Shown here piece by piece: positions 40,851-42,434 of a stretch of DNA of 44,051 nt (its first letter is position 1; each line of letters opens with the position of its first letter). The stretch lies in the sequence record PQ221054; one strand, written 5' to 3'. This DNA is from Escherichia phage Rao1. The notes under the pieces were generated by a model. It made no database searches, was not told the origin of the DNA, and saw only the letters and a program-made list of their open reading frames with translations. The position numbers and the translations under genes are program-made.

Positions 40851-42434
40851 TCACCCCAACAATCGCGGATTAATGTAAATCTTATCACCAATCAGGCATG
40901 TATATTTTTTCTCATCAAGCATAGGAACCAAGTGGTCCTTGATGCGAGTCATTACGCCAGCCTGTCCTTCAAAAGGTTTAACTTTGCGTGCTGCTTCATA
41001 CAGTGAGCGAACGCCAACAACACCCTTCCCATTCTTACCTTGCTTAATCAGGATATCAACCAGCTTATTCATTTCAGCATTATCACCAGCATGACCAGCA
41101 GCACTAGCGGACGACAAATAAGTCTTGCTTAACTCGTGGAAAATCATAACCGCTTCTTGCATTGTTTCAAGCTCAATCTCTCTTGATTTCTGCGGACTCG
41201 ACCCTGCCGGCGCGAACCAGTTGCGAATAACGTGCAATACTGAGGCAATACGGATTGCTTGCTTATCAAATTTACCAAGAGCACCACGTAACATCGTGTG
41301 GGAATATTTACCGCCATCACCAAGATGCGGTTCCATTTCCTGGCGAGCTCGGTTAAGGTAGCGCATGGATGACGCACTTACTGTCAGTTTCACTTCAACT
41401 TCATTCATAATTTCATGAACGAGACGGAAATAGTCTGCTTTAAGACCATCATCAATAGCCTCGTATGTTGAATCGCCATTCTCATCAACAAACACGCGGT
41501 CTCCAAGAAATGACTTTTCACGCACCAGAAGGAAACGCTCGGAAACACCAATACCACGCGCACCAGCATTCATAATCGCATTGATTGTTTCATCCTGAGC
41601 AATTACAGAGATGCACCCCATTGCCACGAAACTCATGTTGTTTTCTGCGTTAGCGCGGGCAATAGATACGTTACCAGCATCCCACGCTTTAAGTACAAGC
41701 TCGCTGTTCGTTTTCTTGGAACCATCACCGTATGTCATGCCCAATAATGAGTTGACGCTTGTTGCCTCATCCGAGATGACCGCAAAGTTACCCTGGCGGT
41801 TGTTGATTCGTGCAAGACCTTCTGGCGTAGTATCTGAGACCGGGAATACGATATCGCACAGCTTCTCGAGCTTTTCCTCTAAATCTTCCTTCTCCTCAAA
41901 CAGTGAAGCCATCTCAGATGGTGACTTCTCCTGTTTCATTTCTTTTGCTAGCGCAGACAGCTTAGCCATAATCTTTTTGCGGTCACGTTTACGCACCTCG
42001 TTCAAACGCTCAGTCTCAGCAATCATTGGCGCAATTGACAGGGAGTTAATGGCTGACTTACCAGTAGATGGCGGCTGGCTAGTTACCACGTAAAGCGATG
42101 TTGGCTGCTGGGTTCCGTGATACTCAACAGTAAAGCGCCCTAGCATCGCAGCGGACACACAACCCAAAAAGTGCATGTATGCTGATGACTCTGGGAACTG
42201 AACTGAGCGAGCAATATTTGCCGAGAGCTTACCAACAACATCAATGTCATTGCCTAGAGATATTACAGGGTACTTGTCATTACCTGCGTCAATCTCCACA
42301 GGTGTTTTCCAGAATGATTGAGACTGCCGATAGCCATTTGCATTAATGGCCACGCGAAGCGGTGGGAGGTTGTCGGTCGCGGCAATCGCCATAACTTGTT
42401 CAACAGATAGTTTATCTTCGTTGAAATCAAACAT
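40851..42434 (-). CDS. Large protein of unknown function (527 aa) with non-canonical P-loop-like motif
   Basis: Long uninterrupted ORF; PPSTGKS and hhhhDE (FAVISDEA) motifs suggest a degenerate NTPase fold; a decayed paralog lies at 942..1466. Confidence 0.6.
   Translation of the reverse strand: MFDFNEDKLSVEQVMAIAATDNLPPLRVAINANGYRQSQSFWKTPVEIDAGNDKYPVISLGNDIDVVGKLSANIARSVQFPESSAYMHFLGCVSAAMLGRFTVEYHGTQQPTSLYVVTSQPPSTGKSAINSLSIAPMIAETERLNEVRKRDRKKIMAKLSALAKEMKQEKSPSEMASLFEEKEDLEEKLEKLCDIVFPVSDTTPEGLARINNRQGNFAVISDEATSVNSLLGMTYGDGSKKTNSELVLKAWDAGNVSIARANAENNMSFVAMGCISVIAQDETINAIMNAGARGIGVSERFLLVREKSFLGDRVFVDENGDSTYEAIDDGLKADYFRLVHEIMNEVEVKLTVSASSMRYLNRARQEMEPHLGDGGKYSHTMLRGALGKFDKQAIRIASVLHVIRNWFAPAGSSPQKSREIELETMQEAVMIFHELSKTYLSSASAAGHAGDNAEMNKLVDILIKQGKNGKGVVGVRSLYEAARKVKPFEGQAGVMTRIKDHLVPMLDEKKYTCLIGDKIYINPRLLG

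Follow-up and report, generated by a model that had tools for sequence, protein, structure and literature searches.

The question raised by this locus is what a large gene of Escherichia phage Rao1, to which an initial annotation made by eye could assign no function, does for the phage. The window, by which we mean the whole stretch of 44,051 nt that was analysed, is the genome of a T1/Rtp-like siphovirus (Drexlerviridae, Braunvirinae, near Christensenvirus). The 527-aa ORF reported at 40851..42434 is present, on the minus strand and with an ATG start; this ATG is shared with homologues of 522-531 aa, including ones that are also 527 aa long, and a ribosome-binding site (GGAGA) lies 7-11 nt 5' of it. 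It is also true, as had been stated, that the gene is among the largest non-structural ones, as, of the replication genes identified, the one for the 664-aa SF2 helicase alone exceeds it.

This analysis established to which family the protein belongs, its fold, the conservation of its motifs and the context of its gene. In architecture it is an AAA+ ATPase of the MCM-related (SF6) clade, to which a small helical unit specific to the lineage is added at the N-terminus and a winged helix at the C-terminus. In our opinion, the gene very probably encodes the replicative DNA helicase of the phage; helicase activity and a 5'-3' polarity would be carried over from AgaPH, the sole family member so tested. 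Nothing about this role is conceptually new, as the family was assigned in 2016 and the biochemistry of one member was published in 2025. The coordinates of all features are given in Table 1.

Table 1. Features of the helicase locus and of related loci in the window; residue numbers refer to the 527-aa protein.
Feature	Position	Strand	Residues	Basis or remark
DUF3987-family MCM-like AAA+ helicase gene, T1 gp09/Rtp rtp67 orthologue	40851..42434	-	1-527	
N-terminal three-helix unit, lineage-specific	42309..42434	-	1-42	helices 11-21, 25-33, 36-41
Strand 1, then P-loop			115-119, 120-127	model
Walker A variant QPPSTGKS	42054..42077	-	120-127	conservation; position after strand 115-119
Charged helical-hairpin insert after P-loop helix	41862..42053	-	~128-191	helices 126-166, 172-191
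Walker B AVISDE	41766..41783	-	218-223	strand 217-221; conservation
Beta-hairpin carrying R260, candidate PS1 hairpin	41625..41672	-	255-270	strands 255-258, 267-270, directly before strand 273-279
Sensor-1 strand, ends in Q280			273-279	model
S-E-R-F, candidate arginine finger R300	41532..41543	-	298-301	directly before strand 301-305 (strand 5)
Helical lid			after strand 5	model
C-terminal winged-helix domain	40854..41093	-	~448-527	
Extended -10 TGaTATAAT (42473..42465) inside palindrome AGCGGC/GCCGCT, likely promoter	42458..42482	-		
111-aa ORF, T1 gp10 homologue	40512..40847	-		PHROG 2794; starts 4 nt after helicase stop
Terminator-like GC-rich hairpin	40491..40507	both		T-runs flanking on both strands
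Stand-alone primase, primase-helicase-type zinc ribbon	31540..32463	-		PHROG 510 'DNA primase', E=6e-89; Pfam Zn_Ribbon_Prim
664-aa SF2 helicase (33083..35077), then VRR-NUC nuclease gene	33083..35493	+		4-nt overlap
Pseudogenised 'headless' mini-paralogue: helicase residues 1-42, winged helix, unique ~48-aa tail	942..1466	+		

Relatives and family assignment

The helicase segment is 99.6-99.8% identical at the DNA level to Escherichia phages CY1, TR1, TR2 and TR3 and 82% identical to Rtp. The gene was matched in all 83 of the related phage records, at full length in 82 of them, and homologues were found across Drexlerviridae with many different hosts. The orthologue in Rtp is rtp67, which is annotated there as "similar to gp09 of phage T1", and in the RefSeq records of Rtp and IME542 the orthologue is already named 'DNA helicase'. 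Compared with T1 gp09, Rtp rtp67 and IME542 gp18 (all PHROG 2373), the Rao1 protein has the same length of 527 aa, a DNA identity of 82-99.8% and the same setting, at the end of a leftward early operon beside the lysis cassette and with a gp10-like ORF downstream; there is no substantive difference, and only the labels vary ('hypothetical', 'DUF3987 domain-containing protein', 'DNA helicase'). The searched literature yielded no experimental study of T1 gp09 or of its orthologues.

The protein is a clear member of a described helicase family, DUF3987 / PHROG 2373. The Pfam DUF3987 profile (PF13148) matched residues 81-432 with 140.1 bits (cut-off 27; E=1.4e-40), spanning profile positions 3-351 of 364, and it also matched all 42 aligned homologues, while PHROG 2373 ('DNA helicase') was matched end to end with E=4e-254. 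A search of NCBIfam with the 527-aa protein returned nothing meaningful. When PDB chains were searched with the protein and with the 42-sequence profile (HMMER, i.e., phmmer and hmmsearch), neither a solved homologue nor an MCM chain was found; a match to 6zsv was rejected, as it covers 35 residues and is at chance level. A lax Pfam scan (E<=10) of the 42 members gave no match to MCM (PF00493), AAA or Mg-chelatase, and the RecA-type core and DnaB_C HMM match that mark a DnaB-like SF4 helicase are absent.

Kazlauskas et al. (2016; PMC4889955) described the DUF3987 proteins as divergent SF6 helicases and distant kin of MCM, a link which for one member had an HHsearch probability of 98%; they also pointed out a C-terminal wHTH and an association with primases, and concluded, as a prediction, that these proteins serve as phage replicative helicases. 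The same prediction was made in a 2018 survey of AEPs. DUF3987 membership is thus a clear homology to a well-characterised family that gives the protein a routine function, and the view that no function could be assigned is overturned by this membership together with the MCM-like fold described below, although one of the options listed in the initial annotation, a replication-associated ATPase, was right.

A member of the family was recently studied at the bench (PMC11724360, 2025). AgaPH, a PriCT-DUF3987 helicase of a Seonamhaeicola mobile element, oligomerises, binds its primase-polymerase and, given ATP or dATP, unwinds forked DNA and DNA with a 5' overhang in the 5'-3' direction, and its activity is abolished by Walker A and Walker B mutations. 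Going by the family and the published description, AgaPH resembles the phage protein in its DUF3987 domain, conserved Walker A and B motifs and small C-terminal domain. The two differ at the N-terminus, where AgaPH carries a PriCT domain and the phage protein a 42-residue helical unit, and in their partners, which is an AEP PrimPol encoded directly upstream for AgaPH, whereas the presumed partner of the phage protein is a zinc-ribbon primase (PHROG 510) encoded 9 kb away.

Predicted fold, motifs and their conservation

Structure prediction with a fold search, one of the checks which had been proposed for this gene, found an MCM-like fold. The AlphaFold2 model of the 527-aa protein, for which 42 homologues were used, is of high confidence (mean pLDDT 88.8, pTM 0.86), and in Foldseek its best 31 matches, all nine with E<=0.001 among them, are chains of MCM2-7 or archaeal MCM. 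In a further structure comparison MCM2-7 and archaeal MCM again score highest, ahead of RavA, BchI, SCCmec Cch and ComM, all of the same AAA+ ATPase branch; SCCmec Cch/DUF927, the SaPI5 primase-helicase, P4 alpha and D5-like proteins are clearly weaker structural matches than MCM and belong to other Pfam families than the phage protein. The AAA+ core of the pre-sensor-1 hairpin clade, to which MCM belongs, is present. Nonetheless, the protein is not a member of the MCM family in the strict sense, because it has no Pfam MCM match, lacks the N-terminal OB-fold/zinc-binding domain of MCM (residues 1-100 are all helix or coil in the confident model), carries an extra helical hairpin of about 60 residues after the P-loop helix and has a tested relative of opposite polarity (5'-3' for AgaPH, the sole DUF3987 helicase tested, vs 3'-5' for MCM). 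Sequence identity to MCM proteins (archaeal, MCM2-7 and MCM8/9) is 10-18%, and the relation to MCM that we suggest draws on the predicted fold and on the published HHsearch results.

The last ~80 residues of the model resemble the winged helices of ORC2, Cdc6 and kleisins. Since an AAA+ module followed by a C-terminal winged helix is the layout of Orc1/Cdc6 initiators too, the protein could instead be an origin-binding initiator or helicase loader, i.e., an Orc1/Cdc6- or DnaC-like AAA+ switch without unwinding of its own, whose winged helix would recognise the phage origin and recruit host DnaB. We regard this as improbable, as the structure comparison places the ATPase core far closer to MCM than to ORC/Cdc6; a replicative helicase that is at the same time a self-loading initiator is possible.

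Putative roles were given to single residues from the secondary structure of the model in the usual AAA+ order, and were read together with conservation. The exhaustive homologue search gave 2563 cluster representatives at E<=1e-3, and conservation was calculated on an alignment of 133 sequences, i.e., the 527-aa protein and 132 of the listed matches of at least 440 aa, where representatives share at most 50% identity. K126, E223, R260, G296, R300 and K388 are conserved in 100% of the 133, as is S/T127, followed by Q280 (99%), P121 (96%), Q120 (95%), R263 and E299 (93% each) and S221 (92%). The Walker A lysine and the Walker B glutamate, both required for the activity of AgaPH, are thus invariant. 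T203 and E205 are also 98-99% conserved in the 133 DUF3987 representatives. The C-terminal winged helix and the spacing between motifs are constant across DUF3987 relatives, with about 99 residues from Walker A to Walker B family-wide, while the N-terminal unit is weakly conserved in the family (a median of 5 of 38 aligned residues identical).

The Walker-A-like PPSTGKS and Walker-B-like hhhhDE motifs that had been noticed by eye are both present, and QPPSTGKS holds the only GK[ST] of the protein. It was also correctly seen that no canonical GxxxxGKS exists, as the first position is Q and there is no GxxxxGK[ST]; to call the P-loop degenerate was a misreading, since Q-P-x-x-x-G-K-S/T is kept family-wide with an invariant lysine, and what the alignment indicates is a family-specific variant. 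At position 222, the aspartate of Walker B, the representatives have D in 38%, A in 34% and S in 23%, so that Ala or Ser occupies it in ~57% of the 133. This variability, with S221 and E223 kept, suggests an atypical coordination of Mg2+ in DUF3987 helicases, and given the replacement of the aspartate the catalytic geometry of the helicase may be atypical as well. By its topology, the beta-hairpin with R260 would be the pre-sensor-1 (PS1) hairpin of the MCM clade, and S-E-R-F, which may be likened to the 'SRFD' motif of MCM, contains R300 as a candidate arginine finger.

Catalytic residues that are invariant over 133 divergent representatives form the pattern of a core enzyme, and this bears on a further option of the initial annotation, that the gene is an anti-defence or defence-related ATPase or is otherwise accessory. 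Its position among small early genes of unknown function would suit such a role, but a search of PADLOC-DB (E<=0.01) with the helicase, the two flanking ORFs and the mini-paralogue discussed below gave no match, and presence in all the related records, at full length in all except one, and across Drexlerviridae of many hosts also argues against it, so that we consider it very improbable indeed.

To hypothesize on the mechanism of the replicative helicase, the protein probably assembles into a ring, as its relatives do. ATP would be bound at the subunit interfaces by K126 and S127 of Walker A and E223 of Walker B, R300 would serve in trans as arginine finger, and the R260 hairpin would grip DNA inside the central channel, so that ATP hydrolysis would drive translocation along one strand and unwinding of the fork. 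The winged helix and the N-terminal unit are probable handles for origin DNA or partner proteins. The separate primase, which we expect to contact the helicase, would lay primers on the exposed strands, and DNA polymerase III of the host may be recruited; the latter is proposed because no polymerase gene is annotated in close relatives.

Gene context and expression

The primase gene lies ~9 kb from the helicase gene and is not adjacent to it, and the primase is its presumed working partner on account of fusions in the family. N-terminal extensions of 150-557 aa are borne by 30 of the 132 relatives: P0171 has a DnaG CHC2 zinc ribbon, P0184 the DnaB N-terminal domain, and P0235, P0252, P0224 and P0240 have primase-type N-termini. 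The N-terminus of P0235 and the stand-alone primase of the window match the same three PHROGs (2249, 510 and 25777). As BLASTP of the window primase against the primase half of P0235 is marginal (E=0.02), this Rosetta-stone argument for a primase-helicase pair rests on the shared PHROG profiles. Other genes of the window code for an SSB (29508..29927), an Erf annealase and an exonuclease. As for a DNA polymerase, none is annotated in the relative IME542, and none was reported for T1/TLS (PMC11447400).

The literature on T1/TLS calls the SF2 protein, which is encoded beside the primase, 'the helicase' and takes it for the replication helicase (PMC11447400), a view that the DUF3987 assignment puts in doubt. 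The DUF3987 protein is in our reading the stronger candidate for the replicative helicase in T1-like phages, and the SF2 protein a weaker one. The latter has a Helicase_C domain, and its C-terminus shows weak ParB_C-like and double zinc-ribbon matches. An SF2 helicase whose gene accompanies that of a VRR-NUC nuclease is more suggestive of remodelling or repair of forks than of replicative unwinding. The roles could also be reversed, with the SF2 protein as the fork helicase and the DUF3987 protein as a recombination or repair motor, i.e., a branch-migration helicase like ComM or MCM8/9 that would serve recombination-dependent replication and concatemer formation. Three points argue against this. 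The top structural scores go to canonical replicative MCM proteins (MCM2-7 and archaeal MCM), fusions to primase-type domains and to DnaB_N within the family speak for a function at the fork, and the SF2 protein is paired with the nuclease gene. We find such reversed roles about as unlikely as that of an initiator. T1 genes 1 and 2 are needed for DNA synthesis, and one of them, we presume, might be gp09. Literature searches returned nothing usable on these T1 DNA-negative genes 1/2, nor on defence-escape mutations in the helicase gene.

The gene is probably transcribed early, as the penultimate gene of a leftward operon and from a conserved extended -10 just upstream. The gap 5' of the gene measures 73 bp and contains this extended -10 in addition to the ribosome-binding site. 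The element is perfect, lies 30 nt 5' of the ATG and has been conserved in Rtp, phiA2-1 and IME542; it occupies the 13-nt spacer between the 6 bp arms of the palindrome, which is kept in Rtp and phiA2-1 and whose arms are altered symmetrically in IME542 (GCGGG...CCCGC). From sequence conservation, this is likely a promoter, possibly with an operator, and the palindrome could be an operator that overlaps the promoter or could form a hairpin in the transcript or in ssDNA. The claim that the gene has its own box promoter is in this respect plausible, but there is no good -35, and the window holds 4 copies of the extended -10 motif where 1.9 are expected, which is no enrichment. The 13-nt box has no meaningful repeat elsewhere in the window, and a sigma-70 consensus scan, which missed the extended -10, gave 8 promoter-like sites against 8.0 in shuffled sequence.

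Downstream, the helicase gene and the 111-aa ORF are arranged in the same way in Rtp, IME542 and phiA2-1. The ORF gave no Pfam or PADLOC match; it is probably a co-translated partner of the helicase and a candidate helicase accessory protein. The hairpin beyond it is likely a bidirectional terminator between the convergent lysis cassette (plus strand) and the helicase operon (minus strand).

For annotation, this means that a gene which is often labelled "hypothetical" or "DUF3987" in T1-like phages is the best candidate for their replicative helicase. T1-like phages often contaminate laboratories and fermenters, and the nearest relatives of Rao1, which infect E. coli BL21, came from fermentation broth or sewage. 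It would make sense to target the helicase, essential in this reading and highly conserved, by CRISPR-based decontamination or with inhibitors designed against it.

A headless mini-paralogue

The initial annotation also stated that the gene was once duplicated and that a pseudogene at 942..1466 is the second copy. A tblastn search of the 527-aa protein against the rest of the window showed that the locus is related and disrupted, but that only the two termini are present and not the whole gene: 942-1067 (+) matches helicase residues 1-42 (64% identity, E=4e-13) and 1092-1322 (+) matches residues 448-526 (59% identity, E=2e-16). Both matches are in one frame, with amber TAG codons at 975-977 and 1071-1073, and the first codon overlaps the stop codon of the DUF7174 gene that lies upstream (TAATG, 940-944).

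A decayed full-length copy of the helicase was rejected as an explanation, as the locus belongs to a separate conserved family of ~175 aa without the ATPase core. Intact orthologues of 174-176 aa are found in TR1 (UVD31736.1), Bas01 (bas01_0066) and SU57; in the related records, intact copies lie at 915-1445 (L005), 1432-1959 (L002) and 907-1431 (L003). The family (PHROG 7327) comprises more than 120 clusters of constant length, with full-length matches in ~110 phage records. The confident model of an intact member (pLDDT 85.9, pTM 0.72) has the N-terminal unit of three helices, then a winged helix and a last helix at the C-terminus, and is structurally most similar to winged helices of ORC2, Cdc6 and kleisins. 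The segments shared with the helicases were also placed in a neighbour-joining tree, where the mini-paralogues group together as one clade and are closest (58%) to the helicases of their own phage group; this suggests one duplication, after which the ATPase core was deleted.

In the lineage of Rao1 and TR2 the mini-paralogue is decaying, TR2 having the first of the amber codons only and Rao1 both. IME542 has an ORF of 36 aa at the same position, possibly a remnant.

The intact protein could be a trans-acting regulator of the replicative helicase that tunes the timing of replication in Braunvirinae/Rogunavirinae phages, an idea which we put forward tentatively and think unlikely to hold. Such a protein might, for instance, bind in place of the helicase termini to the origin, the primase or some other partner of theirs, or might cap the helicase ring; a decoy built from a phage's own helicase docking domains is not described in the papers searched. 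If true, its loss in the fermenter-derived lineage (TR2, Rao1, possibly IME542) would show that it is conditionally dispensable. The mini-paralogue is a small loose end, and it could reveal what the terminal domains of the helicase bind.

The database protein P0282 corresponds to the pseudogene (window 942..1505) translated with all three TAGs read as Gln and with 13 residues beyond the true stop. It was not accepted as an intact homologue, being best explained as a code artefact of the gene caller (its source contigs are all <=2 kb), and it calls for caution with 'intact' homologues derived from databases. Reading of the in-frame ambers by a suppressor tRNA or by TAG recoding was likewise rejected, the sole tRNA being Arg-CCU and TAG terminating 5 of the 49 ORFs of at least 100 codons in the window. 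The single tRNA-Arg gene (anticodon CCT; 3118..3193, plus strand) is annotated in TR1 too.
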